From Candidatus Liptonbacteria bacterium (GTDB lineage Bacteria; Patescibacteriota; Minisyncoccia; UBA6257; 2-01-FULL-56-20), in the NCBI GenBank assembly GCA_016182105.1, contig JACOXZ010000011.1, positions 1,218 to 65,217 of the forward strand: 64,000 bases of DNA, read 5' to 3'. Each line of letters opens with the position of its first letter. Position 1 is the first letter of the stretch. A model generated the notes under the pieces. That model was not told where the DNA came from. It made no database searches and worked only from the letters and a program-made list of their open reading frames with translations. A program made the position numbers and the translations under genes. Positions 5,925 to 63,741 of the stretch are shown one piece after another.

Positions 5925-6025
5925 TCCCGTTAGAAGCCGCGATCGCGTTGCTAAAACTCCAAATATCTATCAATGTACAGTCATTACAATGAACTCGCCT
6001 AGATCGCGATCTGCTTCTAACGGGA
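5925..6025. repeat. family-1 miniature TIR element, copy E1 (about 101 bp; TIR tcccgttagaagccgcgatcgcg / cgcgatctgcttctaacggga)
   Basis: 22-nt terminal inverted repeats read directly. The internal sequence is homologous to E2, E3 and E4. The element ends at the ATG of the downstream gene. Confidence 0.8.
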
Positions 6026-10263: not shown

Positions 10264-10312
10264 GGGGGTTATCCACACGGCACACGTGGATAACCCCTTT
10301 TTCTTTTTTTAA
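10264..10312 (+). terminator. rho-independent terminator
   Basis: Hairpin gggggttatccacacg-gcac-acgtggataacccc followed by a T-run. Confidence 0.75.
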
Positions 10313-10514: not shown

Positions 10515-10629
10515 TCCCGTTAGAAGCCGCGATCGCGTTGCAAATAAATTAAATATCAACCAAATGCGTAATCGTTACAATAAAATAAACCTGCAGACTT
10601 GCGCAAATCGCGATCTGCTTCTAACGGGA
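10515..10629. repeat. family-1 miniature TIR element, copy E2
   Basis: Same 22-nt TIRs as E1. The element ends at ATG 10629. Confidence 0.8.
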
Positions 10630-12876: not shown

Positions 12877-12972
12877 TGCAAATCTACAAAATCTATGCCA
12901 AGTATGCGAATTGCGAATCCGGAGTTTATTAGCAATTTGTAGATTGGCATTATATTTGCAAATTGGCATAAC

Positions 12973-13593
12973 ATGGAAAATGTAGAAGAAAATTTAGCGA
13001 GTTTGGAAGCCCTTCTTTTTATTCAAGGCGAACCGATTGCAAAAAAAAGAATTGGAAAGATTTTGAATCTTCCGCTTGAAGATCTCGAGAAAGTCTTAGG
13101 CGAACTAGAGAAGCGTCTTCACGAGGAGAGCCGCGGACTCTCTTTGGTACTGGACGCGGAAAAAGTCCAGCTTGTTACCAAGTCCAAATTCAGAAATCTT
13201 TTGGAGAGTTTTGCCAAAGAGGAGCTTAGCGAAGAGCTTACGCCGGCTAGCGTTGAAGCTCTCTCAATTATTTCTTATTTAGGACCGATCTCAAGAAGCC
13301 AGCTCGATTTTATTCGAGGTGTGAATTCTACCTTTATTCTAAGAAATCTTTTAATTAGGGGGCTCGTCGAGCGCACACCCCACCCTAAAAGTCCGAATAC
13401 CTATCTCTACAGCCCTAGTTTTCAGCTTCTGCGGCACTTGGGGTTAAAAAATAAAGAAGAACTCCCGGAATACGCAAAGTACCAGGAGCTTTTGAAGAAT
13501 TTCACCCCGTTACACCCAGAAAGCATGGGCTATAAAGATAAGTCGGGTCACGCAGGGGAGGGTGTAACGGGGTTTGGTAGCGATGGTGAGTAA
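12973..13593 (+). CDS. scpB: segregation and condensation protein B
   Basis: LEALLFIQGEPI plus winged-helix repeats. It follows scpA. Confidence 0.7.
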   Translation: MENVEENLASLEALLFIQGEPIAKKRIGKILNLPLEDLEKVLGELEKRLHEESRGLSLVLDAEKVQLVTKSKFRNLLESFAKEELSEELTPASVEALSIISYLGPISRSQLDFIRGVNSTFILRNLLIRGLVERTPHPKSPNTYLYSPSFQLLRHLGLKNKEELPEYAKYQELLKNFTPLHPESMGYKDKSGHAGEGVTGFGSDGE

Positions 13594-14542
13594 CCTTGAA
13601 AAATTCGTCTTTTTGGGCGTGATGATTTTGGTGACCCTTTTTGGAAGTCGTCATTCGCCAGTGATAAATACACCCCCTGCTTCTATCCTTAGTTATCAAG
13701 AAGGGCCTCAAGTTGCCGAAGTTCCGAGAACCTTAGGCGAGGGGTCCTCTATCTCCGATCTTCCGCGGGTCAAAAACCCGCCGTTTTATCGCGTCGCAGT
13801 GAGCCAGCCGTCAAAGATTCTCTCTGACGCCGCGCTTCTTTCTGACCTTAAAAGCGGAGAAATTTATTTCGACCTTAATTCATTGAAGCGCTGGCCGATT
13901 GCTTCGCTTACTAAACTTATGACCGCGGCAGTGAGTTCTGAAAATCTGAATCCCCAAGCAGTGATTACTTTGACCGGAGCCGATTTTGCAATATCTCCAA
14001 ACCATGGGAATCTTCTGAAAGTCGGCGACCGCTACACCGTCCAAGACCTTATGAAAATAATGATTATTTCTTCCTCGAACGAGGCAGCCGAAGCTTTGGC
14101 TGGATTTTATGGTCGGGTTAATTTCGTTTCTCAAATGAATAGTGAGGCGAGGAAGTGGGGCATGACCCAGACCTATTTCAATGATCCGACCGGACTTTCG
14201 GTTTCAAACCAGTCAACTATCCGCGATATCCAAAAGTTAGTCGAGCGGATTTACGAGAATTTTCCGGATATTTTTCCCCTGACTCGGAATCGAACTATTC
14301 CTGTTAAGGAACTCAACTCTGGAAATTATAGGCTCACTTCAAGCACCAATAACTTTTCCGGCCGGCCGGATTTCTTAGGAGGCAAAACCGGCTATACTGA
14401 CGAGGCTAACGGTAATCTTGTTTCGCTTTTTTCTTACGCTAGCCGGCCGATTTTAGTCGTAGTCCTCGGCTCTCCTGACCGCTTCCTCGAGACCGAAAAA
14501 TTAATCAATTGGTTTAAAAATGATTTTACTCCAAGTCAGTAG
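13574..14542 (+). CDS. D-alanyl-D-alanine carboxypeptidase (serine peptidase S11, PBP5-like)
   Basis: The SxxK (ASLTK), SxN (SSSNE) and KTG (KTGYT) motifs are all present. N-terminal membrane anchor. Confidence 0.7.
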   Translation: MVAMVSNLEKFVFLGVMILVTLFGSRHSPVINTPPASILSYQEGPQVAEVPRTLGEGSSISDLPRVKNPPFYRVAVSQPSKILSDAALLSDLKSGEIYFDLNSLKRWPIASLTKLMTAAVSSENLNPQAVITLTGADFAISPNHGNLLKVGDRYTVQDLMKIMIISSSNEAAEALAGFYGRVNFVSQMNSEARKWGMTQTYFNDPTGLSVSNQSTIRDIQKLVERIYENFPDIFPLTRNRTIPVKELNSGNYRLTSSTNNFSGRPDFLGGKTGYTDEANGNLVSLFSYASRPILVVVLGSPDRFLETEKLINWFKNDFTPSQ

Positions 14543-15566
14543 GGTTCTTCTTTTAACAATGATCGGTTTTCTCATGGCCTTGGCAGTGACCCCGATTTGG
14601 TATCGGTTTTTACAGAAATACAGGCTATCCAAACAAATCCGCACTGCGAAAGTTGCCCCGGTTTACAATCAATTTCACGAGAAAAAAACCGGCACGCCCA
14701 CAGCCGGAGGAGTCATTATCTGGGGGACGGTGGTTGGCATCGCCGCGGTCTTCGGGATTTTGGGCTTCGCTTTTAACGGGTTTTGGAAGTATTTGAACTT
14801 TTTGAGCCGAGCCGAGACCTACCTCCCACTGGCTGCCATTTTAATTGCCGGGATTCTAGGGTTTTTGGATGATTGGCTGGGGATTTTGAAGATCGGCGGC
14901 GGAAACGGCGGCGGGCTCAAGGTTCGCTATAAACTCCTGGTCTATCTCTTGATTGCCATAATTGGCGCTTGGTGGTTTTACTTTAAGCTTGATTGGACGG
15001 TTTTGAATATCCCTTTCTACGGCTCGGTTGAGGTCGGCTTTTGGTATATTCCGATTTTTATGTTCATCATTATTGCGAGCGCTTTCTCGGCTAATGAAAC
15101 CGACGGCTTGGACGGGCTTTTAGGAGGAGTGGCTCTTTTTGCTTTCGTGGCATTGACCACGGTGGCATTTGTTTTAGGGAGGTATGACTTAGCGGCCTTT
15201 GGAGGGGTCGTGATAGGAGCGCTTTTGGCGTTCTTATGGTTCAATATCTATCCTGCCAAATTCTTTATGGGCGACACTGGCTCAATGGCTTTGGGAATTA
15301 CTTTGGGCGTGATCGTGATGCTCACAAATACAACCCTACTTCTCCCGTTTTTCGCGATTATCTTAGTCCTTGAATCTTTGTCGGTCTTGATTCAGCTTCT
15401 AAGCAAAAAATTGGCAGGTAAGAAGGTCTTCTTATCCACGCCGATTCACCACCATTTTGAGGCCCTGGGCTGGCACGAGTCGCAGGTTACGATGCGCTTC
15501 TGGATTATCTCCGCGGTCTCCGCGGCCTTTGGACTCGTCGTCTTTTTCCTCACGAGGTTTTTGTAA
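14520..15566 (+). CDS. mraY: phospho-N-acetylmuramoyl-pentapeptide transferase
   Basis: NETDGLDGL and NIYPAKFFMGDTGSMALG motifs. Polytopic membrane protein. Confidence 0.85.
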   Translation: MILLQVSRVLLLTMIGFLMALAVTPIWYRFLQKYRLSKQIRTAKVAPVYNQFHEKKTGTPTAGGVIIWGTVVGIAAVFGILGFAFNGFWKYLNFLSRAETYLPLAAILIAGILGFLDDWLGILKIGGGNGGGLKVRYKLLVYLLIAIIGAWWFYFKLDWTVLNIPFYGSVEVGFWYIPIFMFIIIASAFSANETDGLDGLLGGVALFAFVALTTVAFVLGRYDLAAFGGVVIGALLAFLWFNIYPAKFFMGDTGSMALGITLGVIVMLTNTTLLLPFFAIILVLESLSVLIQLLSKKLAGKKVFLSTPIHHHFEALGWHESQVTMRFWIISAVSAAFGLVVFFLTRFL

Positions 15567-15605
15567 GCATTTAAAATTCTATGAGTTTTTCGTTAAGCTT
15601 ACGTT

Positions 15606-16886
15606 TTGCTAGACTTTGGTTTTCTTGGTATTCTCTGGTTAATGCTTCAATCTAGACTTTTTACTAAGGTCGCCCGTAACTTCCCAAAAGATGAAGAGGC
15701 GATAAACGCCAAGCTTCTTACGCGGGCGGGGTTTGTGGAGAAAGTTTCGGCGGGTGTATATTCGTTTTTGCCGCTCGGACTTCGCGTGATGCGTAAGATT
15801 GAAACAATTATTCGCGAGGAGATGAACGCGCTAGGTGGAATGGAGATCTTGATGCCCGCGTTGCATCCTAAAGAAAACTGGGAGACGACTGGCCGCTGGA
15901 AGACTTTTGACGTGCTCTATAAAATCAAATCGCGGGAAGGCAAAGAATTTGCCTTGGGTCCGACACACGAAGAAATCGTGGTGCCGCTAGTGGCGAAATT
16001 CGTGAATTCCTACAAAGATTTACCTGTTTATCTTTACCAAATACAGGACAAATTCCGAGATGAACTGCGCGCGAAATCAGGCCTTCTCCGAGGTCGGGAA
16101 TTCTTGATGAAGGACTTATACAGTTTTCATACCTCCGAAGGCGATTTAGACTCTTTTTATGAAAAAATGAAAAAAGTTTATACGAAATTATTTTCCCGAG
16201 CCGGACTAAAAACTAGAATAGTGAAGTCATCCGGCGGCACTTTTTCCAAATATTCTCATGAATTCCAGGTATTGACCCCAGTCGGCGAGGATGCGGTTTT
16301 CTACTGCGAAAAGTGCGATTTTGCCGAAAACAAAGAGATTGCAGAGGTAAAAGAAGGGGACAAATGCCCAAATTGTGCGGGGAAAATAAGGGTAAGCCAG
16401 GGAATTGAGGTCGGCAATATCTTCAAATTAGGCACCAAGTTTTCCAAGGATTTTGAGCTTCTCTATAAAGACGAGAAAGGCAAGGAGAATCATATCTCAA
16501 TCGGCTGTTACGGCATAGGCCTTAGCCGGCTTATGGGCGCCATAGTAGAGATTTTTCATGATGAGCAGGGCATAATTTGGCCGGAGACAGTCGCCCCTTT
16601 TGCTGCGCATCTTATAGAGCTTGGGGAAGGCAAATCCAAAAAGCTCTACCACGATTTACAAAAAGCCGGAATAGATGTACTTTATGACGACAGGAATATA
16701 TCACATGGCGAGAAACTGACAGAAGCGGATCTGATTGGCATACCCCTACGTCTGGTTCAGAGCGAAAAAACCGGCGCGAAGATTGAGGTCAAGCGCCGCG
16801 ACGAGAAAGATTCAAAACTGATGACAGTGTCACAAGTTATAAAATTACTACAACCTACAACCTACAACCTACAAACTATAACCTAA
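15606..16886 (+). CDS. proS: proline--tRNA ligase (short archaeal/eukaryal-type class II)
   Basis: Class II aaRS motifs and a C-terminal zinc CxxC...CxxC. The C-terminus is encoded by an acctacaa word repeat. Confidence 0.75.
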   Translation: MLDFGFLGILWLMLQSRLFTKVARNFPKDEEAINAKLLTRAGFVEKVSAGVYSFLPLGLRVMRKIETIIREEMNALGGMEILMPALHPKENWETTGRWKTFDVLYKIKSREGKEFALGPTHEEIVVPLVAKFVNSYKDLPVYLYQIQDKFRDELRAKSGLLRGREFLMKDLYSFHTSEGDLDSFYEKMKKVYTKLFSRAGLKTRIVKSSGGTFSKYSHEFQVLTPVGEDAVFYCEKCDFAENKEIAEVKEGDKCPNCAGKIRVSQGIEVGNIFKLGTKFSKDFELLYKDEKGKENHISIGCYGIGLSRLMGAIVEIFHDEQGIIWPETVAPFAAHLIELGEGKSKKLYHDLQKAGIDVLYDDRNISHGEKLTEADLIGIPLRLVQSEKTGAKIEVKRRDEKDSKLMTVSQVIKLLQPTTYNLQTIT

Positions 16887-16888
16887 TC

Positions 16889-17932
16889 ATGTCCCTCTTT
16901 GATAATTTTTTTAGAGACATCGGCATTGACCTTGGCACGGCTAATTCGCTCATATATCTCAAAAATCACGGCATTGTCGTGAATGAGCCTTCGGTTGCAG
17001 CCGTGAATACCAAAACCAGTCAGATTTTGTCGGTCGGCGAGGAGGCCAAGAAAATGTTTGGCCGCACGCCGGCTCACATAAACGTGATCCGGCCACTTGT
17101 GGCTGGCGTGATCTCGGATTTCGAGATGACCCAGGAATTGCTCCGCCAGTTTTTAAAAAGAGTGAGCCGTGGAACTTTTGCGAGCTTCAGGCGCGGGGTG
17201 CTTGCGATTCCGAATAGCTTGACCGAAGTCGAACGAAAGTCAGTCGAAGACGTGGCCTTGAATGCCGGCTGCAGCAAAGCCTACCTTGTGGAGTCACCGG
17301 TTGTGGCGGCCTTGGGAGCTGGGTTGCCAATCAACCTTCCGGTCGCGAGCCTCATTGTTGATGTTGGCGGCGGAACCACTGATATTGCGGTCATATCCCT
17401 GGGCGGGGCAGTAGCTTCTAAGACCCTGAAAATTGCCGGCGACCGGATGAATGACGATATTGTACGTTTCGTAAAAGATGAATTTCGGCTGGTAATCGGC
17501 GAGCCCACAGCCGAGCTTGCGAAGATAACGGCGGGCTCGGCAGCGCCGATTGATGAGCGGCTCGAGGTGACTTTACGCGGCCGGGATGCGGGAACCGGCC
17601 TACCCCGCGAGGTGGCGATCAAAAGCAATCAGGTTCGAACCGCCATCTCCAAATCCCTGCGCTCGATTATTGATTCCGTAAAAGAAGTGATTGAAGTCGC
17701 GCCGCCTGAACTTGTGGGCGATATGTTAAAGCAGGGGATTTATCTCTGCGGCGGCGGCGCGCTCCTCCGAGGTTTTGACGAACTTATTGAAAAAGAGACA
17801 TCGGTCATGACAACCATCGCGGAGGACCCCCTCACATGCGTCGCTCGCGGCTTGGGCCAGATTATCGATAATTTTGAACTTCACCGAACTTTACTCGACA
17901 ACCCTTTGAAGCCGCCGACAATTAATCTATAA
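16889..17932 (+). CDS. mreB: rod-shape determining protein MreB
   Basis: Actin-fold motifs IGIDLGTANS and DVGGGTTD. Confidence 0.85.
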   Translation: MSLFDNFFRDIGIDLGTANSLIYLKNHGIVVNEPSVAAVNTKTSQILSVGEEAKKMFGRTPAHINVIRPLVAGVISDFEMTQELLRQFLKRVSRGTFASFRRGVLAIPNSLTEVERKSVEDVALNAGCSKAYLVESPVVAALGAGLPINLPVASLIVDVGGGTTDIAVISLGGAVASKTLKIAGDRMNDDIVRFVKDEFRLVIGEPTAELAKITAGSAAPIDERLEVTLRGRDAGTGLPREVAIKSNQVRTAISKSLRSIIDSVKEVIEVAPPELVGDMLKQGIYLCGGGALLRGFDELIEKETSVMTTIAEDPLTCVARGLGQIIDNFELHRTLLDNPLKPPTINL

Positions 17933-17934
17933 AA

Positions 17935-18618
17935 ATGGGCCGCGAACGCTGGCTTTTGGGAATTTTGACTTTGCTTCTTGCGGCACTGATTTTTCTGCCG
18001 CTGCCTTCACTTCTCGAGTTTAAGAAATTTTTAGGCTCTGGAGGCGAAGAGGTTATAAATAATCCGATTTTAGAGAACGTCGCTTTGAAATCGGAACTCG
18101 CGAAGCTCGAGGAAATTAAAAGACAGCTTGGAGAATGGTCGCCAAAATACCTAAGCGCCTCGGTTTATTCCCGTTATCCCTTTAATCTCAAAAATGAATT
18201 TTTGGTGAATGCGGGCCTAGACCAGGGTCTTAAAGGGGGGGAGGCGGTTCTCATTGGGAAATTGCTAGTCGGTCAAGTGGATAAAGTTTTTGAAAATACA
18301 GCACTCGTGAGGACTGTTTTTGACGAACGATGGAAAGAGGCTGTGAGGATCGGAGGGGAAGGGATAGACGCGCTTCTCGAAGGCGGTAATACCCCAAAGG
18401 CGACTTTGATCGTGAAGGATGCCAAAATCTCCGAAGGCGATATCGTCTATAACGCAAGCCCGGAATTTCCTTATTCTCTGCCGATTGCCGAAGTAAAAGA
18501 AATAGGGATTTCCAAGGACCAGATTTTTAAAGAAGCGGTTTTGGAGTTTGGATATGACTTGGGCAGGATTAGCGCCGTTTTAATCTTAAAAAACTATGCC
18601 CCGCCGCCTCAAGAGTAA
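17935..18618 (+). CDS. mreC: MreC-like protein
   Basis: Position immediately after mreB, an N-terminal TM and a coiled coil. Weak direct similarity. Confidence 0.5.
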   Translation: MGRERWLLGILTLLLAALIFLPLPSLLEFKKFLGSGGEEVINNPILENVALKSELAKLEEIKRQLGEWSPKYLSASVYSRYPFNLKNEFLVNAGLDQGLKGGEAVLIGKLLVGQVDKVFENTALVRTVFDERWKEAVRIGGEGIDALLEGGNTPKATLIVKDAKISEGDIVYNASPEFPYSLPIAEVKEIGISKDQIFKEAVLEFGYDLGRISAVLILKNYAPPPQE

Positions 18619-19054
18619 TTTTCTTGTCGCATTTCTTATCGTTTCTTTTGCAGTAGTCCTTCAGCTGAAGATAGGCTTAATTTCAAGTTTGTATCCGAAT
18701 TTCACTTTGGCTGCTTTAATTGCCTCGGCCCTTTTTCTTGATTTCTCCGAACTGGGCTTTTTAGTTTTTTTTAGCGCCCTCATCTTAAACTGGCGGCCGG
18801 GTTTAAGTCCAGAGATTATGGTTTTAATCAGCCTGCCAATCACAGTTTCTGTTCTTAGAAGATTTTTGCCGGCCCAAGCGTGGATGAACCTCGTTCTTGC
18901 CCTCGTCCTCGGTCTCTTGGTTTTTTATTCCGCAGCCGGCTTTCAGAGTTTGGTCAAAAACTTTAATATTTTCTTAATAGACCTTACTATAAGCACGGTC
19001 GTTGCTGTCCCAACTTTTCTTATCCTTAAAACCCTCAATGCCTCGAAAATATAA
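18596..19054 (+). CDS. mreD: MreD-like small polytopic membrane protein
   Basis: Position between mreC and PBP2, 152 aa, all-hydrophobic. Confidence 0.4.
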   Translation: MPRRLKSNFLVAFLIVSFAVVLQLKIGLISSLYPNFTLAALIASALFLDFSELGFLVFFSALILNWRPGLSPEIMVLISLPITVSVLRRFLPAQAWMNLVLALVLGLLVFYSAAGFQSLVKNFNIFLIDLTISTVVAVPTFLILKTLNASKI

Positions 19055-20933
19055 AGCCAAAAATTTTACCGATTTCGAGGAGTCGTTAAATGGCGGCTCA
19101 CGCGAGGAAGTCATAGAGGTGCCCTTGAGCAGCCAGCCGCTTTTTTATACGGGCTTATTAATTTTTCTTTTTGCCGCGCTTGCCGTAGGCCGCGTTCTTT
19201 TCTTGGGTGTAGTCTCCGGCGAAATCTATAAAGCCAGGGCCGAGGCCAATTCTAGCGAGCTCGAGCGGCTTCAAGCGCCGAGGGGTCTCGTCTTCGCGAG
19301 AGGCGGAGAAGTTTTGGCAGAAAACCAGCCGGTTTTCCTGGCCGTCTTGAAGACCAGCGAATTTCTAAAAGACGAGTCTATCCAAGAAAAAACGCTTGCT
19401 TCAATCAAGGAGATTATGGGAATTGATAGAGAACTAGTCTGGAGTCTGATCAAAGAACGAGACCAAGAAAGAATAGGCGACCCAATTGTTCTTAGCGCCG
19501 ACCTAAGCCAAACTGAGCTAATTCAGCTTAAAAGCCTCAATTCCTTGTCCCTGGTCGTAGAGAGCGGTTTCAAGAGGAATTATCCGGACGGCCCAATTTT
19601 TTCTTCCATAATTGGCTATACCGGACTCCCTACCGCCCTAGATCTTAGAGAGAATGCCGAACTTACCGGCGTGGATTTTGTTGGCAAATCCGGCCTAGAG
19701 GCTTTTTACGATAAAGATCTCCGCGGAAAAAACGGATTTTTAGCGTATCTCCGCGATGCCAAAGGTGAAATCTTCGAAGAAAAAAAGGAGAGGCCAGTCG
19801 AGGCAGGAGCGGCTCTCAATTTAACAATTGACGCTGAATTTCAGCGCTATTTTTACCACAGGATGCAAGAGGGACTCACCTCATTAGGGAGAAACTCCGG
19901 CGTTGGTCTGGCGTTAAATCCGAGAAACGGCGAGGTTTTGGCCCTGATTAATTTACCGAGCTACGACCCCAATATTTTCTTGGCTCCAGAGAAAAACGAA
20001 GAGAGGTTGAAACTCTTGAATTCACCGGAGACGCCCCTGTTCAATCGGGCTATAAGCGGCACCTACAGCCCAGGTTCCACAATTAAGCCGCTCGTGGCTC
20101 TCGCGGCTTTGAGCGAAGGCGTGATCAACACCGAAAAACAAATTTATTCCCCAGGCTATCTTGAAATTCCGAATCCTTATGACCCCCAGAAACCCACTCT
20201 TTTCCTCGATTGGCGGCCCCAGGGCTGGGTGAATTTAGAGCGGGCCATTGCTCAGTCCTCGAACGTTTATTTCTACACTGTAGGCGGTGGCTTCGGCGAT
20301 ATTAAGGGGCTGGGGATCAAACGTTTAAACGACTGGTGGCAAAAATTTAATTTAGGAAAGCTCACTGGCATTGATTTACCTTGGGAGGCCAAGGGACTTT
20401 TGCCCACAGTCGAGGAAAAAGAAAAAAGAACCGGCACGCCCTGGCTTTTGGGCGATACTTATAACGTCTCAATTGGCCAGGGAGATCTCTTGCTTACTCC
20501 TCTTCAGATTTTAAACTACGTTGCCGCAATTGGAAACGGCGGGAAAATCTACCGGCCGTTTCTTGTCTCGAATTTCAAACACTCCGAAGTTGCTAGCGAC
20601 CTTTCTAATCTTCAAACTCAAATTTCTGAAGTGGAGAAAGGCATGAAGGCCGCAGTGAATTTTCCCTTAGGCACCGCCTACCTCCTTCACGATCTTCAGG
20701 TCTCGGTCGCTGCAAAAACCGGAACAGCCCAGATTTTGTCGAACACCCAGGCCAACGCCTTCTTTGTCGGTTTTATGCCGGCCGAGGATCCTGAAATTGT
20801 TATCCTGATTTTAGTTGAACGTTCGCGCGAAGGCAGTTTAAACACCGTGCCTATCGCTAAAGACGTGCTTAACTGGTACTACTTAAACCGGATCCCTCAC
20901 CCTTCAGAGATTTTATCTACGTCATCAAAATGA
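19002..20933 (+). CDS. mrdA: penicillin-binding protein 2 (transpeptidase)
   Basis: STIKP (SxxK), SSN and KTGTA motifs. The last 11 codons and the stop codon lie inside family-2 repeat F2-1. Confidence 0.8.
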   Translation: MLSQLFLSLKPSMPRKYKAKNFTDFEESLNGGSREEVIEVPLSSQPLFYTGLLIFLFAALAVGRVLFLGVVSGEIYKARAEANSSELERLQAPRGLVFARGGEVLAENQPVFLAVLKTSEFLKDESIQEKTLASIKEIMGIDRELVWSLIKERDQERIGDPIVLSADLSQTELIQLKSLNSLSLVVESGFKRNYPDGPIFSSIIGYTGLPTALDLRENAELTGVDFVGKSGLEAFYDKDLRGKNGFLAYLRDAKGEIFEEKKERPVEAGAALNLTIDAEFQRYFYHRMQEGLTSLGRNSGVGLALNPRNGEVLALINLPSYDPNIFLAPEKNEERLKLLNSPETPLFNRAISGTYSPGSTIKPLVALAALSEGVINTEKQIYSPGYLEIPNPYDPQKPTLFLDWRPQGWVNLERAIAQSSNVYFYTVGGGFGDIKGLGIKRLNDWWQKFNLGKLTGIDLPWEAKGLLPTVEEKEKRTGTPWLLGDTYNVSIGQGDLLLTPLQILNYVAAIGNGGKIYRPFLVSNFKHSEVASDLSNLQTQISEVEKGMKAAVNFPLGTAYLLHDLQVSVAAKTGTAQILSNTQANAFFVGFMPAEDPEIVILILVERSREGSLNTVPIAKDVLNWYYLNRIPHPSEILSTSSK

Positions 20934-21023
20934 GTACTACAGACAAGACGTTTCCTTTCAAAGTCGCTCGGCAAAAGAGATCACACCATGAAAAATCGTG
21001 CATGATCTCTGAATGGTGAGGGA
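20893..21023. repeat. family-2 miniature TIR element, copy F2-1 (about 131 bp; TIR ccctcacccttcagagat / atctctgaa.ggtgaggg)
   Basis: Homologous to the copies at 34724 and 62973. It ends at an ATG. Confidence 0.8.
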
Positions 21024-21364
21024 TGATTCAAAAATTTATTCGATTTAAAATCACAAGCGCTGCTTTCTTCGCGAGTTTGACACTGGTTTTAAGTGGATGG
21101 CTTTGGGCCTATTTTTCGTTAAGAAATCTCCCGCCACCCTATATTCTTAGGTTTGTGAGCAATCTTGGTGTGACCCAATTAGGCGATCTTCAAGACATTG
21201 CCGCCGCCGGAGCCGTGGCCATGATAAGCGTGCTTTTGAATTTTATACTGGCTTTTGAGCTTGAGACCAAAGCAAAGTTTTTAGCGAAACTCCTGACTTT
21301 TTCAACCCTGACTTTTGCCGCCTTGATTTTCATCGGCTTCGCCGCTATTATTAGCGTCAACTAG
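21023..21364 (+). CDS. hypothetical small membrane protein
   Basis: 113 aa with three hydrophobic segments. The start is supplied by the end of F2-1. Confidence 0.35.
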   Translation: MIQKFIRFKITSAAFFASLTLVLSGWLWAYFSLRNLPPPYILRFVSNLGVTQLGDLQDIAAAGAVAMISVLLNFILAFELETKAKFLAKLLTFSTLTFAALIFIGFAAIISVN

Positions 21365-21445
21365 TGGATAGTGTGCTAGTGACTAGTGACTAGCGCACTA
21401 GCCACCAACGTACTAGTCACTAATGCACTAGTCACTAACTCTCAT

Positions 21446-21757
21446 ATGTCCACATTTGCAATTATCGAAACCGGCGGCAAGCAATACAAAGTTTCTGCCG
21501 GGGACAAAATCAAGATTGAAAAAATCTCTAGGAAAGTGGGCGAGAGTTTTGATTTCGATAAAGTGCTCCTCAAGGCCGACGGAGCGAGCGTGGAGGTAGG
21601 CGCGCCGTACCTCACGGGCGTGAAGGTGGAGGCGACGGTTTTGCGCCAGGCGCGCGACAAGAAAAAAATCGTCTTTAGGTACCACCCAAAAACTCGTTAC
21701 CGAAAGAAGAAAGGACATAGACAGTTCTTTACCGAAGTACAGATTGGGAAGATTTGA
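21446..21757 (+). CDS. rplU: 50S ribosomal protein L21
   Basis: MSTFAIIETGGKQYKV. The ORF-track start at 21386 reads through an upstream actagtcac word repeat. Confidence 0.85.
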   Translation: MSTFAIIETGGKQYKVSAGDKIKIEKISRKVGESFDFDKVLLKADGASVEVGAPYLTGVKVEATVLRQARDKKKIVFRYHPKTRYRKKKGHRQFFTEVQIGKI

Positions 21758-21884
21758 AAGCCCCGCCTTCGTCCGTAAGGACTTCGGCGGGGTGCTCGAT
21801 TTCGTGATCTCGCTTCGCTCGAACGAAATCGGCAAAGGGGCATCGGCAACATTTTACGGAAGTTAAGATAGAGAAAATATAAAA

Positions 21885-21912
21885 CCGTCCGCCTCAGGCG
21901 GACGGTTTTTTT
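21885..21912. terminator. bidirectional rho-independent terminator between rplU and pyrG
   Basis: Hairpin ccgtccgcc-tcag-gcggacgg flanked by T/A runs on both strands. Confidence 0.7.
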
Positions 21913-23533: not shown

Positions 23534-23560
23534 AATTTAGGATGCGGTATAATTATAGCA

Positions 23561-34723: not shown

Positions 34724-34855
34724 CCCCCCCACTCTTCAGAGATTTTCTCTACGTCATCAAAATGAGTACTATAGACAAAATGTTTCATTTCAAGGCCGTT
34801 CGGCAGATGAGATTATGCTACGAAAAATCGTGCATGATCTCTGAAGAGTGAGGGA
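34724..34855. repeat. family-2 miniature TIR element, copy F2-2
   Basis: It begins immediately after the TGA of the upstream response regulator and ends at the ATG of the next one. Confidence 0.8.
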
Positions 34856-35262
34856 TGAGGCCGAAACCTTTAATTTTATTAGTTGACGATGAGGCTGATT
34901 TTCGAGAGATTATCAGCGCGAAGCTCACCGCAGCGGGTTTTGACGTTGCTCTAGCTAAAAATCAGTCCGAAGCCGTCGCTAAAGCCGAGCAACTCTTGCC
35001 TGACCTGATTTTAATGGATATCTATTTGCCGCCCGGGCCAACCGGGACTGATACGGCCTTGAACATCAGGCAAAATCCCAAAACCAAAGATTTAAAAATC
35101 GCATTCCTCACCAATCTTAAAGAACCCTGGCCTGCAATCGGCGGGGATAGAGAAAAAGTTACCCAAGAGCTTGGCATGGAAGGGTTTATAGAAAAGACAG
35201 AAGATTTGAATATGCTCGTCAAAAAAATCCAGGAAATTTTAGAGAAGGCTCCCTCGTCTTGA
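34855..35262 (+). CDS. single-domain response regulator (paralogue of 34331-34723)
   Basis: MRPKPLILLVDDEADF receiver domain. Confidence 0.7.
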   Translation: MRPKPLILLVDDEADFREIISAKLTAAGFDVALAKNQSEAVAKAEQLLPDLILMDIYLPPGPTGTDTALNIRQNPKTKDLKIAFLTNLKEPWPAIGGDREKVTQELGMEGFIEKTEDLNMLVKKIQEILEKAPSS

Positions 35263-35410: not shown

Positions 35411-35440
35411 TTTTTATCGGCTGGCGCTATAATCTTTCGC

Positions 35441-41264: not shown

Positions 41265-41703
41265 GTTAGGCGATATCCAGAGGCTGCGGGAGGCAACCGG
41301 AGCTGGAGTCATGGAGTGCAAAAAAGCCATAGAAGATGCGGAAGGTGATTTTGACCGAGCAGTAAGTTTGATTCACAAAAGGGGGCTTCTTAAGGTTCAA
41401 AAGCGCAAGGCACGGGAAACCGGAGCCGGACTTATTGAATCCTACGTTCATAATGATAGGATTGGCGTTCTCTTGGATTTGCGGGCTGAGACTGATTTTG
41501 TTGTCCGTTCCGAGCCTTTTCGCCGGCTCTCCCACGAGCTTGCCATGCAGATTGCGGCTCTCGCGCCTCAAAATCTTGAGGAATTATTGAAACAGCCGTA
41601 TATTAAAGATGAATCTAGGACTGTCGAGGATTTAATAAAAGAAGTGATTGCCCTGGTTGGCGAAAACATCCGAGTTAATAAGTTCTATCGTTTAGAACTC
41701 TAA
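41257..41703 (+). CDS. tsf: elongation factor Ts (short form)
   Basis: LREATGAGVMECKKAL-type N-terminus. It overlaps the rpsB stop. Confidence 0.7.
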   Translation: MDKLGDIQRLREATGAGVMECKKAIEDAEGDFDRAVSLIHKRGLLKVQKRKARETGAGLIESYVHNDRIGVLLDLRAETDFVVRSEPFRRLSHELAMQIAALAPQNLEELLKQPYIKDESRTVEDLIKEVIALVGENIRVNKFYRLEL

Positions 41704-41735
41704 AACCTAAAACCTATCACCTAAAACCTAGTAAC

Positions 41736-42153: not shown

Positions 42154-42393
42154 CGTTGGAAAAGTCAATGCCTCGCGGCGCGGAACGCGCCGCTCGGCGA
42201 CCAAATCGTAAGGATTTTTCGGGGCAAAAAGAAATTCCCGATTCCATTAAAAGCAGAAAAGAAAAATTTTTCAAACACTCCCAAGAGGTGGCAAGCCGCC
42301 TCTTGACTTTTGTGACGTAATATGCTATCTTTAGGTGAAATCTGGGCATAGTGCTTAAATGGAATCAAATCGTACCTTGAAAGGAGAAAGACG

Positions 42394-42558
42394 ATGTACA
42401 ATATCACACGGCCGTTGTTCGGAGGAATGGCCATTCCCGCCCCTTTCTTTGCCATGAATGCGGACAGTTCAGAGAAGGCGTTGGCATGGGTCGGGTATGG
42501 CATCATCTTCGCCCTGCTCTCTCTCGTGTCGGCTGTCGCCGCTCGCGACGAGAAGTAA
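42394..42558 (+). CDS. GC-rich 54-aa hydrophobic peptide (cassette B ORF)
   Basis: SD aaaGGAGaaagacg precedes the ATG. Hydrophobic stretch ALAWVGYGIIFALLSLVSAVAA. Followed by a terminator. Confidence 0.4.
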   Translation: MYNITRPLFGGMAIPAPFFAMNADSSEKALAWVGYGIIFALLSLVSAVAARDEK

Positions 42559-42580
42559 GCAGACCTTTCTTCGTGCCATA

Positions 42581-42617
42581 ACGGGGATTCGCGCAACGCG
42601 GTCCCCGTTTCTTTTTT
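42581..42617 (+). terminator. rho-independent terminator of cassette B
   Basis: Hairpin acggggattcgcgcaacgcggtccccgt followed by a T-run and the conserved AT-rich linker. Confidence 0.65.
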
Positions 42618-42672
42618 AATTTTTGATTTAAAAGTTTTCATAAAAGAATTTGCCGCCAAAGAAAAACTTGAA

Positions 42673-42832
42673 ATTGTCAGCGGTGCGGCTCCCCGATACC
42701 ATCCGCCTTCGGCGGAGCTACGGGGCAGGCCGCCGCATTTTCGGATTTTCGCGGGGGGCTTTCCTCGCTCCGACGTTACGTCGGAGCGAAATGCGCTGTG
42801 CCCCGTAGTAAGCTTTGCTTTACTACTGGGGT
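42673..42832. repeat. GC-rich structured element of cassette B (multiple hairpins, e.g. cgctccgacg-ttac-gtcggagcg)
   Basis: It occupies the same position relative to the AT linker as element A. Sequence similarity to A and C is weak. Confidence 0.4.
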
Positions 42833-42974
42833 TCGGATTACTTTAAGAATACTGTATAAGTAGCAAAAGCACTGCCGTAACTGAAGCGGTTTGTAACAAA
42901 ACATACTATTCTATCGTATATTTAAATAAATCTTTCAAAGGTCGTTAAATCCAACCAGACATAACACGAGAGAT

Positions 42975-50465: not shown

Positions 50466-51382
50466 TGTTGATAGGCCACGAGCGGATCATTAAGGACTTA
50501 GAATATCTAGCGAAGAGTCGCGACTTCAGTCACGCCTATCTATTTTTCGGAACAGAGCAAGTAGGTAAAAGGAGAGTGGCTTTAGGATTAGCAAATTATT
50601 TTGAAAAAGGAATTTTTGACCCGCCAGCCTCGACTAGCTCGAGTCTAGGCGGGCCAGGCGAGCCGCCCTCCGCTGGGGGCGAGCCTCGCCTCCATGGAGG
50701 CGGGAGACCCCTGAACGACACCCGGCAAATTGAGCCGAGCCCGGAGAAAACAATCGGCATTAATGTCGTCCGGGAGCTAAAGAATTACTTGTCCCAAAAA
50801 CCGAATGTGAGTCCATACCGTCTGGTGATTATAAATGATGCTGAATTTTTGACCCCAGAGGCCCAAAACGCTCTTCTCCGCTTAACTGAAGAGCCGCCGC
50901 CTTCTTCTCTTTTAATCTTAGTTTTACGGGATCCGGAGTCGCTCACGCCTACGCTTACCTCGCGTTTTCAAAAAATTTATTTTGGGACGGTTCAAACCTC
51001 GATCGTGAAAGTCTGGTTAGAGAAAGAGTTAAAGATTTCAGTTAAAAAAGCCGAAGAAGTTGCTAAGATTTCCCGCGGGAAGCCCGGGCTCGCTTACAGC
51101 ATGCTTAAGGATAAAAACTTTGAGGCGCTCACGCGAACGGCGGAAAAATTCTCTAAAGTCCCCAAAAGAGATCGCCGCCTTTTTTTAAAAAAACTTCTCG
51201 AATCCAAAAACTTTAATTTCCCTGCCTTTTTAGATGCTTTAGTCATAAATCTGGAGCCAAAAAAAGTGGATAATTTTCACCTCTGGCACAAAATTTTAGA
51301 ACTCAAGAGGAAAATGACCTATTTCAATTTGAATCCGCGTCTCCAGCTTGAGAATCTTTTGGAGGCTTTTGTATCCCGTTAG
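50465..51382 (+). CDS. holB: DNA polymerase III delta' subunit-like (with a GC-rich low-complexity insertion)
   Basis: AAA+-like N-terminus HAYLFFGTEQVGK and RLTEEPP. Confidence 0.6.
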   Translation: MLIGHERIIKDLEYLAKSRDFSHAYLFFGTEQVGKRRVALGLANYFEKGIFDPPASTSSSLGGPGEPPSAGGEPRLHGGGRPLNDTRQIEPSPEKTIGINVVRELKNYLSQKPNVSPYRLVIINDAEFLTPEAQNALLRLTEEPPPSSLLILVLRDPESLTPTLTSRFQKIYFGTVQTSIVKVWLEKELKISVKKAEEVAKISRGKPGLAYSMLKDKNFEALTRTAEKFSKVPKRDRRLFLKKLLESKNFNFPAFLDALVINLEPKKVDNFHLWHKILELKRKMTYFNLNPRLQLENLLEAFVSR

Positions 51383-51412
51383 ATAACTATCTCACGGGAT
51401 AAACAAAACCTT

Positions 51413-51519
51413 CACCCAGCACATAAATTTATGATGACGTTCACAAACAACAAATCAATAACTGCCACACAAAACAGCTTAATACTGAAGGTCACCTGGT
51501 TAAATTTATGTGCTGGGTG
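51413..51519. repeat. perfect 19-bp inverted repeats (cacccagcacataaattta / taaatttatgtgctgggtg) flanking a 69-nt loop
   Basis: Read directly. Intergenic between holB and frr. Confidence 0.6.
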
Positions 51520-51558
51520 CTCAATTTTATCATCTCGCTTCGCTCGAACAAAATTGGC

Positions 51559-52125
51559 ATGACAGCTGAGGTAGCGGGAAGATTTATTAAGGAACTCGAA
51601 GCTGAATTGAAGTCGGTGGTTCAAAGATTCCGTGAAGAGGTGAGAGTCCTCCGCGGCAGCCGTCTTTCGACCGAACCTGTGGAAAATATTAAGGTTAATT
51701 ATTATGATGAATGGCTTACAATAAAAGAGCTTGGGACCCTTACGGTCGTACCGCCACGCGAAATTGATATTAAAGTCTGGGATAAAACTGCGGCACCGCT
51801 TATCTTAAAAGCTTTGGAAGATTCTAAAAGCGGGCTCACAGTTCAAAGTGAAGGGGACTTAATTAGAACCTTTCTTCCGGTTTTAACCAAAGAGCGCCGC
51901 GAGGAGCTTGGAAAACTCGTTAAAAAAATATCCGAGTTGAGCCGTATCCAAGTTAGGAGCCGTAGGGACGAGGCGATAAAAAAAATCAAGTCAGCAAGCG
52001 ACAAAAAAGAGATTAGCGAAGATCAGGTTTTTAAGTCTAAAGAAAAAATCCAAGAATTAGTTGATAATGCGAATAACCAAATCGAAACCATTGTTCAGAA
52101 TAAAATCAAAGAACTAAGCGAATAA
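51559..52125 (+). CDS. frr: ribosome recycling factor
   Basis: RRF motifs VRVLRGSR, VKVWDK. The ORF-track start at 51508 reads through a hairpin motif. Confidence 0.8.
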   Translation: MTAEVAGRFIKELEAELKSVVQRFREEVRVLRGSRLSTEPVENIKVNYYDEWLTIKELGTLTVVPPREIDIKVWDKTAAPLILKALEDSKSGLTVQSEGDLIRTFLPVLTKERREELGKLVKKISELSRIQVRSRRDEAIKKIKSASDKKEISEDQVFKSKEKIQELVDNANNQIETIVQNKIKELSE

Positions 52126-53225: not shown

Positions 53226-53341
53226 TCCCGTTAGAAGCCGCGATCGCTTTGGGTAATGCATAGTTGTTTGCCGTATGGATAGTCATTGTTATACATCGCT
53301 ATAGTCCACATATCACTGATCGCGATCTGTTTCTAACGGGA
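53226..53341. repeat. family-1 miniature TIR element, copy E3
   Basis: Same TIRs as E1 and E2. Flanked by cgttg on both sides. Confidence 0.8.
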
Positions 53342-59018: not shown

Positions 59019-59087
59019 CTTTTAGCTGATAGCTTTTAGAAGTAAAATAACTAAAAGCTAAAAGCTGTAACCTAAAAGCTAGTAATT

Positions 59088-60563: not shown

Positions 60564-60680
60564 TCCCGTTAGAAGCAGATCGCGATCTGGGTAAGTCTGC
60601 AGTTCAATTTTATTCACTGTAATGACTATACACTGATAGATGTTGGATTTTTAGCAACGCGATCGCGGCTTCTAACGGGA
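60564..60680. repeat. family-1 miniature TIR element, copy E4 (inverted relative to E1, E2 and E3)
   Basis: The reverse complement of the internal sequence aligns with E1 and E2. It ends at the ATG of the histidine kinase. Confidence 0.8.
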
Positions 60681-62383: not shown

Positions 62384-62409
62384 AAGTTAACTGTTATAAT
62401 ATCCCAAAC

Positions 62410-62972: not shown

Positions 62973-63103
62973 ATCCCCCACCTTTCGGAGATTTCTCCCC
63001 GTCATCAAAACGAAGTTTGGACACAAAGCATTTGTTTTCAAGGTCGCCTTAGACTTGAGACCGTGCTTCAGAAAGAAGCGTATGATCTCTGAAAGGTGAG
63101 GGA
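62973..63103. repeat. family-2 miniature TIR element, copy F2-3
   Basis: It ends at the ATG of sodA. Confidence 0.75.
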
Positions 63104-63741
63104 TGAAATTTGAATTACCAGCGCTCCCGTATCCATACGACGCACTAGAGCCATTTATTGACGCTCGGACCATGGAGATTCACCACACCAAGCATCACGC
63201 GACATACGTGGCGAAGCTGAACGAGGCCCTGGAAAAACACCCCGCCGTCGCTCACGCTTCGGCGGGCAAGCCCGAGTTCGAAATACTGGAAGGACTTTTG
63301 AAGAATCTCGAGGCGGTTCCAGAAGATATAAGAACCGCAGTCAGGAACCACGGCGGAGGGCACTGGAACCATTCTTTTTTTTGGTTGGTAATGGCTCCAA
63401 ATGCCGGAGGCGAACCGAGCAGCGTCTTAGCTGAAGCAATAAATAATGCTTTCGGCAGTTTTGAAAAATTCAAAGAAAAATTCACTAGCGCTGGTCTTAA
63501 TAGGTTTGGCTCCGGCTGGGCCTGGCTCGTGGCGAGTAACGGCAAGTTAGAAGTTTACAGCACGCCGAATCAAGACAACCCTTTAATGGAAGGAAAAGTT
63601 CCGGTTTTGGGTATCGATGTGTGGGAACATGCGTACTATGTTAAATTTTTATGGAATAGGGCAGAGTATATTAAGACCTGGTGGAACGTCGTTAATTGGC
63701 GACGAATTGAAGAAAATTACAATAAAATTGTGAAAAAATAG
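63103..63741 (+). CDS. sodA: Fe/Mn superoxide dismutase
   Basis: [18 protein letters not shown]. Confidence 0.9.

Follow-up and report, generated by a model that had tools for sequence, protein, structure and literature searches.

A hairpin shared by the rplU and frr loci of a Liptonbacteria genome as a candidate module of a palindromic element

Two hairpins with the same loop are located 30 kb apart in a stretch of 64,000 nt from a Candidatus Liptonbacteria genome (contig JACOXZ010000011.1; the whole stretch is called the window), the first one downstream of rplU (copy 1, or w1) and the second one directly upstream of frr (copy 2). The contig belongs to a metagenome-assembled genome, and the Frr and L21 proteins of the window match its database entries at 100% identity. 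Do the hairpins act as RNA, or are they carried along as DNA? A preliminary description of the window favored a functional RNA structure, possibly with a protein-binding loop. Our own answer is tentative and different, with a probability of about 0.45: the hairpin would be module P2 of a small modular palindromic intergenic element in Paceibacteria-type bacteria of the candidate phyla radiation (CPR). The element would resemble repetitive extragenic palindromic (REP) sequences and miniature inverted-repeat transposable elements (MITEs), and it would be transcribed and be tolerated only where gene ends are rebuilt.

Structure and distribution of the hairpin

The features of the two loci are as follows (the loops of the inner hairpins are bracketed).

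21755-21757, + strand: stop codon of rplU
21760-21793, + strand: P1 of copy 1, a GC-rich hairpin, GCCCCGCC-UUC-GUCC-GUAA-GGAC-UUC-GGCGGGGU, beginning 3 nt past the rplU stop codon
21793-21834, + strand: P2 of copy 1, with outer stem TGC/GCA, bulged T at 21796, and inner 9-bp stem formed by 21797-21805 and 21823-21831
21797-21831, + strand: inner hairpin of copy 1, cgatttcgt[gatctcgcttcgctcga]acgaaatcg
21806-21822, + strand: 17-nt loop of P2 in copy 1, with the shared 18-mer at 21807-21824
21881-21909, both strands: bidirectional intrinsic terminator common to rplU and the convergent pyrG, with a 13-bp stem, eight GC pairs, and T-runs on either strand
51373-51400, + strand: small hairpin atcccgt..acgggat across the holB stop codon, the first part of the holB/frr insert of about 177 nt
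51413-51519, + strand: P1 of copy 2, a 19-bp perfect inverted repeat (cacccagcacataaattta / taaatttatgtgctgggtg) with a 69-nt loop
51518-51559, + strand: P2 of copy 2, with outer stem TGC/GCA, bulged T at 51521, and inner stem formed by 51522-51530 and 51548-51556 with one A.C mismatch
51522-51556, + strand: inner hairpin of copy 2, caattttat[catctcgcttcgctcga]acaaaattg
51532-51549, + strand: the 18-mer in copy 2

The sequences that had been quoted for the two hairpins were both recovered in the window, with the correction that copy 2 ends at 51556 and not at 51557. The exact 18-mer ATCTCGCTTCGCTCGAAC, which has the core TCGCTTCGCTC and includes a tandem TCGCT repeat, has exactly two occurrences in the window, at 21807 and at 51532 of the plus strand. 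When up to three mismatches were allowed, 0.08 matches were expected by chance, and none of 100 shuffles gave two. The block that is conserved between the copies is wider than the hairpin first described and comprises about 46 nt (GGGTGCTC, stem, loop, stem, GGCA). Folding showed that the helix extends by three further pairs (TGC/GCA) past a bulged T, which yields a stem of 3 bp, bulged T, and 9 bp, and that a second hairpin, P1, lies directly upstream of P2 in both copies. The stems had been said to differ at most positions, but only 3/9 positions differ in the 5′ arm and 2/9 in the 3′ arm; these are two compensatory changes from G-C to A-T and the A.C mismatch of copy 2. P2 scored 76.2 bits in copy 1 and 68.4 bits in copy 2 with the covariance model R1. 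The described positions were correct in both cases. Copy 1 is in the 3′ untranslated region (3′-UTR) of rplU, between stop codon and terminator, and because it precedes the terminator, it is within the rplU transcript. In copy 2, 2 nt separate the inner stem from the frr ATG (51559-51561), whose A (51559) is the final base of the P2 outer stem.

Exact-word scans for the 18-mer over genome and metagenome collections and the covariance-model search that had been proposed yielded about 16 additional copies, all from other Paceibacteria-type CPR genomes. Ten further loci have the exact 18-mer in a like hairpin (L005, L007, L033, which equals L129, L039, L108, L120, L124, L125, L126, and L127), and at least six more members with the same scaffold were retrieved with the covariance model built from the 18-mer copies. 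The inner stems of these copies vary, yet they stay paired (CGATTTCGT, CAATTTT(A/G)T, CGAAAATGT, AGATTTT(C/G)T, GAATTTGT, GAATTTCCT), and the outer three pairs covary as well (TGC/GCA, TCC/GGA, CAC/GTG). In an alignment of 11 sequences, 88.6% of the 12-bp helix was paired, and 9 of the 12 pairs changed on both sides, while no pair changed on one side only. This covariation was far above that of shuffled and slid-register controls. Because the stems differ but stay paired beyond all controls, the hairpin is real and maintained.

The fixed loop, in contrast, did not hold as a feature of the family. Four members (L136, L151, L126b, and L127b) have the same flanks and stem with unrelated loops, and two more retain only a part of the 18-mer.

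L136, upstream of rplJ: loop gaaaccttgcggtta
L151, in the leader of a tRNA-23S-5S operon: loop acgcaaatcgcattgc
L126b and L127b: loops of 23-28 nt
L127c and L147: loop variants retaining only the core TCGCT(T/A)CGCTC

Copy 1 and L136 have GGCGGGGTGCTCGATTT..AAATCGGCAAAGG almost exactly in common, and their loops are unrelated; L033, L039, and L005 have the same loop on different stems (the copy of L005 is 1 nt shorter). The element is a mosaic, in which stem and top vary independently. Its modules are P1, a linker of 0-2 nt, a bulged A/T-rich lower stem, and an exchangeable top. P1 is often CCCGCC-N3-GGCGGG and sometimes an extended inverted repeat around a large loop; in most relatives, P2 comes after a CCCGCC-N3-4-GGCGGG hairpin. 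The helix of P2 is A/T-rich, has 12-13 bp and a single bulged T, and most commonly carries the 18-mer as its top.

The association with ribosomal or translation genes, which had been put forward as a check, was also found. Translation genes or tRNAs (rplU, frr, rpmF, rplJ, rpmG, and the tRNAs for Pro, Gln, and Thr) adjoin 7/11 pattern-found loci, which corresponds to p ~0.004 by our own tally if about 22% of loci would do so by chance. Orientation was sense in about 9/11 copies. In sense copies the outer stem of P2 stops 0-4 nt before the ATG of frr, dnaE (L039), rpmF (L126), rplJ (L127), and an open reading frame (ORF) in L127c, or P2 ends directly at the 5′ end of tRNA-Pro (L124). It lies 16-26 nt before tpiA (16-18 nt, in L007 and L033) and rplJ (L136), and in L120 it falls within the leader of a pilin-like ORF. 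Antisense copies immediately follow tRNA-Gln (L005), tRNA-Thr (L108, upstream of rpmG), and tRNA-Tyr (L147), and they are stably kept there. In L151, the scaffold copy lies about 315 nt upstream of an operon (13298-20135) that has no adjacent 16S gene and whose 23S gene is split by a group I intron and a LAGLIDADG ORF. Intron-interrupted 23S genes are typical of CPR genomes.

Insertion of the two window copies

The comparison with relatives shows both window copies to be recent, lineage-specific insertions that the closest relatives lack. In L131-L133 (Frr 89% identical), P2 is absent, and an 11-nt overlap of holB and frr leaves no intergenic DNA. The window sequence departs from these empty sites after GAGAATCTTTT, the end of holB, and 7 nt were replaced, not duplicated. 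L130 and L134 have a different palindromic insert of about 150 nt at this junction, bounded by an 18-bp inverted repeat that ends with GGG directly at the ATG, and the L147 lineage has yet another one. When frr was compared for an import of its 5′ end together with copy 2, the N-terminal region was the least conserved one in all pairs.

The closest relative for the other locus, L135 (L21 88% identical), is without such an element downstream of rplU. The 3′ end of the gene is present twice in the window.

21686-21757, + strand: functional rplU 3′ end of foreign type, the last ~24 codons plus stop codon, left part of the inserted segment
21835-21882, + strand: displaced native rplU 3′ end, a non-coding pseudo-fragment of 48 nt that translates as KGHRQHFTEVKIEKI*

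The identity between rplU of the window and that of L135 is 0.90-0.98 in the middle of the gene and 0.62-0.71 over the last 72 nt, where the protein sequence is kept. The pseudo-fragment lies between hairpin and terminator and is joined to P2 at an AAGG microhomology; it is identical to the real rplU 3′ end of L135 at 41/44 nt and to the functional end in the window at about 33/48. Because the native end survives as an L135-like pseudo-fragment and the functional end diverges, copy 1 must have come in on some 150 nt of foreign DNA (21686-21834) with a recoded rplU end, the stop codon, P1, and P2. The left crossover occurred inside rplU and the right join at AAGG, and the native end was pushed downstream. 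Copy 1 was thus acquired by recombination anchored in the conserved rplU and not by cut-and-paste transposition. A mere recent duplication, which the preliminary description had named as the case that would undo its argument, does not agree with about 16 more copies in different genomes and loci, although each window copy is itself a recent insertion.

RNA structure, DNA palindrome, or cassette

Compensatory change had been taken as the signature of an RNA structure. The covariation itself stood, but it is not specific evidence for RNA here: all 22 covarying cells went from one Watson-Crick pair to another, with no G.U intermediate and no G.U pair among 132 stem cells. Change between Watson-Crick pairs only is expected from a DNA palindrome and is unusual in an RNA helix under selection. 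In addition, the minus strand folds better than the plus strand (-17.2 vs -15.2 kcal/mol for copy 1 and -11.6 vs -7.9 kcal/mol for copy 2), because the loop there, UCGAGCGAAGCGAGA, becomes a GCGAAGC mini-hairpin flanked by tandem G.A pairs. The whole copy 1 (83 nt) had a folding energy of -38.4 kcal/mol (z = -3.4), and copy 2 as plus-strand RNA was no more stable than shuffles (-7.9 kcal/mol, z = +0.55). In summary, a functional RNA with a protein-binding loop gained from the further copies and the covariation and lost with the loop fixity and the strand-specific RNA signature, and it is putative only. A protein-binding RNA loop and a cis-acting RNA role are both possible on the sequence evidence.

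Searches for known motifs gave the following results. Rfam 15 at gathering threshold detected two tRNAs only over the window, and at E values up to 10 nothing meaningfully covered the hairpin. The 15-mer core, on either strand and as DNA or RNA, had no match in a full-text search of one paper library. Scanning detected no intrinsic terminator at P1 or P2; the real one is 47 nt downstream of copy 1. No sigma-70 promoter (-35/-10, spacing of 16-18 nt, at least 9/12 positions) was found at either locus, where the best combinations had 8/12. A BLAST search of P1-P2 against phages gave chance GC-rich matches in mycobacteriophages only.

Several candidate motifs were rejected. A boxA for Nus factors (TGCTCTTTAACAA, single-stranded core GCTCTTTA) was dismissed as TGCTC is present in about 10/18 members only, with TCC/GGA and CAC/GTG as alternatives to TGCTC/GGCA; because TGCTC covaries with its GGCA partner, the constraint is on pairing and not on sequence. 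A tRNA-like reading of GGCGGGAUGCUC, or of GUUCGAGC on the reverse strand as a T-loop, failed by eye for want of a T-stem or acceptor partner, and the core positions of a hammerhead or K-turn in the GA-rich reverse strand, also read by eye, did not fit.

In the palindromic-element reading, the element would be gained and lost as a block, and the compact genome would receive it in its very short spacers. It would survive only where its ends restore the neighbors, for example by a new stop codon or C-terminus, or by a flush end at a start codon or tRNA. The arms would stay complementary by propagation or repair as a DNA palindrome, in the form of a single-strand hairpin or a cruciform. A likely agent would be a hairpin-recognizing HUH/Y1 enzyme that acts in trans (IS200-like, or a REP-associated tyrosine transposase, RAYT), such as related genomes encode. 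Conserved translation genes may be enriched next to the element partly as they would serve as recombination anchors. Residing in UTRs, the hairpins would probably act passively on the mRNA, as REP elements do, by 3′-end protection after rplU and as a structured leader that abuts the frr start.

A transposase gene with palindromes is indeed present in relatives. L147-L149 encode a Y1_Tnp protein (PF01797) of 224 aa, and the palindrome AATATAAGGA(C/T)GTC(C/G)GACGTCCTTATATT stands on either side of its gene.

13575-13612 and 14287-14317 of L147: CGTC-type palindromes flanking the Y1_Tnp gene, also present in L148 and L149

REP/RAYT-like biology is thus present in the clade; the CGTC-type palindrome of L147 is unrelated to P2. 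The L147 locus adjoins a GIY-YIG gene and tRNA-Gln.

A number of observations weigh against the palindromic-element reading. Two copies in 64 kb are few in comparison with classical REPs. Neither a GTAG/CGTC tag, nor a conserved terminal inverted repeat, nor a target-site duplication was found at the copies, and no transposase is linked to any of them, with only 10 of the ~70 window proteins scanned against Pfam. Every start-adjacent copy (9-10 in all) is polar, with P1 first, then P2, then the start, and regulation could account for the enrichment beside translation genes. Between the orthologous tpiA loci of the diverged genomes L007 and L033, P2 and 13 further nt form a 60-nt block with 58/60 identities, against about 40% identity in the flanks; of the two differences, one is part of a compensatory pair. 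This block looks like purifying selection on a function and not like junk. In addition, the bulged T is conserved, as in protein-binding hairpins. Polarity, translation-gene adjacency, and conservation at tpiA argue for some constraint beyond junk DNA.

The same observations could be explained by a cis-acting structured leader RNA of highly expressed housekeeping genes (r-proteins, tRNA, rRNA, frr, tpiA, dnaE), which we regard as possible but doubtful. With their conserved bulge or loop, the adjacent hairpins would serve as a binding site for a protein or for RNA polymerase and would define the 5′ end of the downstream RNA without a Shine-Dalgarno (SD) motif, regulate translation, or mediate termination resistance like the put RNA of phage HK022. 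The start-adjacent copies are all sense, with the foot of P2 flush with or near the starts, one scaffold copy lies in the leader of a tRNA-23S-5S operon (L151), and the preference for translation genes, the block at tpiA that is kept despite diverged flanks, the conserved bulged T, and the covarying stem would all be expected. Defined 5′ ends would matter in this genome, as most window genes lack an SD motif and have TATAAT about 7 nt before the ATG. However, several members have the loop replaced by unrelated sequence, copy 1 is in a 3′-UTR with no gene downstream, and antisense copies are conserved after tRNA genes. The lack of G.U pairs and the weak plus-strand fold of copy 2 also disagree with a leader RNA, and close relatives manage without the element at both window loci. 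A function in double-stranded DNA, as promoter or regulator site, would tolerate both orientations and Watson-Crick covariation only, but it seems very improbable. The 3′ arm and tail would give a -10-like NAAAAT 3-8 nt before the start, in a promoter of leaderless type with the 18-mer as spacer or factor site; in 9/9 start-adjacent copies, (C/G)AAAAT indeed precedes the ATG or the tRNA 5′ end by 3-8 nt, and genuine window genes have TATAAT 7-9 nt before the ATG. Nevertheless, AAAAT is expected from the composition of A/T-rich arms, the arms are A/T-flipped in L033 and L007, the consensus scan yielded no sigma-70-type promoter at either copy, and copy 1 has no gene to drive. Sites of dimeric factors, moreover, do not evolve as covarying arms with a variable center.

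A trivial origin by recent duplication, by chance, or from an in-frame short peptide, (V/M)L(D/N)F(V/I)ISLRSN(E/K)IG, is hardly credible. The frame is open through P2 in seven copies, it is in frame with frr and with the pilin-like ORF of L120, and the database annotation begins Frr at a GTG inside the element. The peptide was nevertheless rejected in view of ATG-TAA or a frameshift in L039, L126, and L127, the copy of L005 that is 1 nt shorter, and arm changes that give non-conservative residues (F to N, E to I) while pairing is kept. Chance is excluded by the expected number of matches and the shuffles given above, and both chance and duplication by the further copies in different genomes and loci.

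The 18-mer also occurs far outside the CPR. The genome scan had matches at more than 118 loci, with about 70 from rumen Bacteroidales/Paludibacteraceae among the matches listed. Sharing among phyla may be due to transfer, to convergence on a very stable hairpin nucleus, or to coincidence. We consider it quite improbable that hairpin loops and other repeats across phyla receive the 18-mer as a tiny mobile or templated cassette in its own right. In Bacteroidales, a dispersed repeat of the form X-TTCTT-18mer-GATT-(covarying hairpin)-TTT-X has the 18-mer as its core and often follows an intact tRNA at a distance of about 80 nt; in variants, the center of the 18-mer is a covarying mini-hairpin (GC-TTC-GC, GGC-AA-GCC, GGG-ATAAA-CCC). 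The module of Bacteroidales and Coriobacteriia often lies between an intact tRNA and a displaced duplicate of that tRNA's 3′ end, immediately 5′ of the duplicate, which parallels copy 1 with its position 5′ of the displaced rplU end. CPR copies minus the 18-mer leave a plain 7-bp hairpin with a variable triloop (GTG, ATC, GTA, CTA, and others), and for this reason, the base opposite the invariant C varies. In the Bradyrhizobium locus L001, the 18-mer exactly fills the loop of a 7-bp ggcacgc/gcgtgcc hairpin (the corresponding stem in L096 is imperfect, 5 bp by our scan). These points in favor of a cassette are opposed by about 17 chance matches expected in 596 Gb and by roughly 35 of the matches listed that look coding or chance. 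The tandem TCGCT repeat lowers the complexity of the 18-mer, the viral matches are at chance level, and the flanks have nothing in common between phyla. Furthermore, no protein family recurred in more than five of the 70 Bacteroidales loci, which had no linked mobilizing gene and no orientation bias, and we know of no mechanism for an 18-nt mobile unit.

The dispersed repeat with the 18-mer was seen in the Bacteroidales loci L011, L019, L020, L026, L028, L006, and L013 and in the termite-gut Coriobacteriia loci L119 and L121-L123. After tRNA genes, the order is intact tRNA, terminator, inverted copy of the tRNA 3′ end, 18-mer, variable hairpin, and direct duplicate of the tRNA 3′ end; elsewhere, the repeat is embedded in heptamer arrays (TTGATAA, TTCAGAT…) or 29-nt tandem arrays (L086, L088). 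A link to viruses was rejected, since the three viral matches correspond to the chance level. One of the sequences, L144, looks by eye like a CRESS-like virus (Arg-rich capsid N-terminus, TAGTATTAC-type origin loop), and its TCGCT iterons happen to include the core.

Two further ideas would reach farther, and we consider them improbable: either P1-P2 is an undescribed, class-wide RNA cassette of Paceibacteria that marks the starts of translation-apparatus genes (r-proteins, tRNA, rRNA, frr) in genomes without SD motifs, by processing to leaderless 5′ ends or as a put-like RNA that modifies the polymerase, or, independently, the 18-nt loop is an ultra-small cassette exchanged among hairpins of CPR, Bacteroidales, Coriobacteriia, and Alphaproteobacteria.

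Genomic setting and comparison with known systems

The genome is compact, and most window genes are without an SD motif, while many have TATAAT 7-9 nt before the ATG (e.g., 1203-1215, 23544-23560, 35424-35440, 62391-62409). This suggests that leaderless mRNAs are widespread in this Liptonbacteria genome. Two further families of palindromes were found in the window.

20892-21024, 34729-34856, and 62973-63104: family A, palindromic inserts of ~110-190 nt, also present in L130 and L134 at holB/frr
5925-5945, 10515-10535, 53226-53246, and 60660-60680: family B, tcccgttagaagccgcgatcg, four exact copies of TCCCGTTAGAAGCCGCGATCG that form arms of long intergenic hairpins

Family A ends with ATCTCTGAARGGTGAGGG exactly at the ATG of the genes at 21023, 34855, and 63103. 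Its left arm ATCCCYCACYYTTCRGAGAT resembles the 16S 3′ tail and its right arm ATCTCTGAARRGTGAGGGAT is SD-like; the upstream gene takes its stop codon from the insert, in which a long hairpin sequesters an SD-like GGTGA. One copy of family B ends with ctaacggg directly before the ATG of a histidine kinase gene, and the P1 of L120 is of family B type. The genes that follow inserts of both families are ordinary (response regulators, superoxide dismutase, histidine kinase).

When the window was scanned by structure for hairpins like P2 but with a different loop, none was convincing, apart from a looser candidate at 12879-12946. The region around it (12879-12972) has a hairpin TGCAAATCTACAAA…TTTGTAGATTGGCA with a 45-nt loop and then TTGGCA-N6-TTGCA (~12930-12960) about 12 nt before the scpB ATG, which has a sigma-54-like -24/-12 spacing and is unrelated to P2. 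The perfect palindrome GGGGGTTATCCAC-N9-GTGGATAACCCC at 10264-10297 contains two inverted 9-mers similar to DnaA boxes and is located at the edge of a highly structured intergenic region of 320 nt; its neighbors are not dnaA/dnaN (one has no Pfam match, the other is DUF4015). Short tandem heptamer-like repeats are found directly upstream of starts (16849-16888, 21365-21445, 59019-59087, and 41690-41730), with TACAACC three times before 16889, the CACTAGTGACTAG type before rplU, and the AGCTAAAAG type before 59088; they recall the heptamer arrays on either side of the Bacteroidales 18-mer module. An intergenic region of 625 nt (42350-42974) upstream of a secreted phosphatase-like gene has a strong predicted structure (-218 kcal/mol) and no Rfam match.

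CPR genomes are tiny and tightly packed, and to our knowledge, almost nothing is known of their non-coding DNA, their promoters, and translation starts without SD motifs. The window shows that even such genomes carry modular palindromic inserts, which are gained by recombination with conserved genes as anchors, rebuild split gene ends, and directly abut start codons. An element that acts on RNA would offer a handle on how CPR bacteria define mRNA 5′ ends for translation; if the element is selfish DNA, it would be a useful marker of recombination between CPR lineages. For RNA discovery based on covariation, the hairpin is a caution, since DNA palindromes can yield perfect "compensatory" signals.

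Among the known systems, REP sequences, bacterial interspersed mosaic elements (BIMEs), and the REPINs mobilized by RAYTs are alike in being short imperfect intergenic palindromes whose hairpins are transcribed in UTRs, in their mosaic modules, and in their position near stop codons and between genes. P2, a 42-nt imperfect palindrome in intergenic DNA, agrees with the REP description of a 20-40-nt extragenic imperfect palindrome. REPs are defined by a conserved GTAG or CGTC tetranucleotide at one end (PMC3733652), whereas neither is found at the foot of either strand here, where the flanks are GGG(A/G)TGC.. and ..GCA. The element also differs from REPs in its two copies per 64 kb, in that no cognate RAYT was found next to any copy, and in its strong polarity toward downstream starts, and while REPs conserve the stem, here the stems vary and the top or flanks are conserved.

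MITEs such as the Correia elements of Neisseria and the enterobacterial repetitive intergenic consensus (ERIC) or intergenic repeat unit (IRU) are likewise small non-coding inverted-repeat inserts that are present or absent between strains, and they are co-transcribed with neighboring genes and able to alter their expression. The Correia and ERIC/IRU elements have conserved terminal inverted repeats, a TA duplication, and hundreds of copies. Here, in contrast, the arms differ between copies, no direct repeat flanks P1-P2, and copy 1 came by gene-anchored recombination. Integrative elements that target 3′ ends (islands at tRNA or tmRNA genes and their remnants, the cis-mobilizable elements, CIMEs) resemble copy 1 in that the target gene is intact, its 3′ end is substituted, and the native end is displaced beyond, and this likeness extends to the Bacteroidales/Coriobacteriia modules. 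They differ from the insert here, which has only about 100-150 nt, no integrase, no identical att-type direct repeat, and a right junction of 4-nt microhomology.

The put RNA of phage HK022 consists of two stem-loops one nucleotide apart that act in cis on RNA polymerase. The likeness is one of geometry only, with two adjacent hairpins, a linker of 0-2 nt, a bulge, and an operon leader; there is no sequence similarity, and some copies here are antisense or in a 3′-UTR. The d(GCGNAGC) mini-hairpins and ops elements provide another analogy only, as the complement of the loop core, GAGCGAAGCGAG, contains GCGAAGC, an extraordinarily stable mini-hairpin (PMC13037366). Elements of ops type are read by NusG paralogues, GGCGGTAGC by RfaH and CTGCGAAGCATA by UpxY of Bacteroides (PMC11213015). 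However, ops needs the non-template strand, and such a site was rejected here, since GCGAAGC is on the template strand in both window copies and in most relatives (9/11 copies). Taken together, because neither the REP tag nor a conserved terminal inverted repeat or target-site duplication was found, we assign the element to no named family; in kind, we regard it as a small palindromic repeat.

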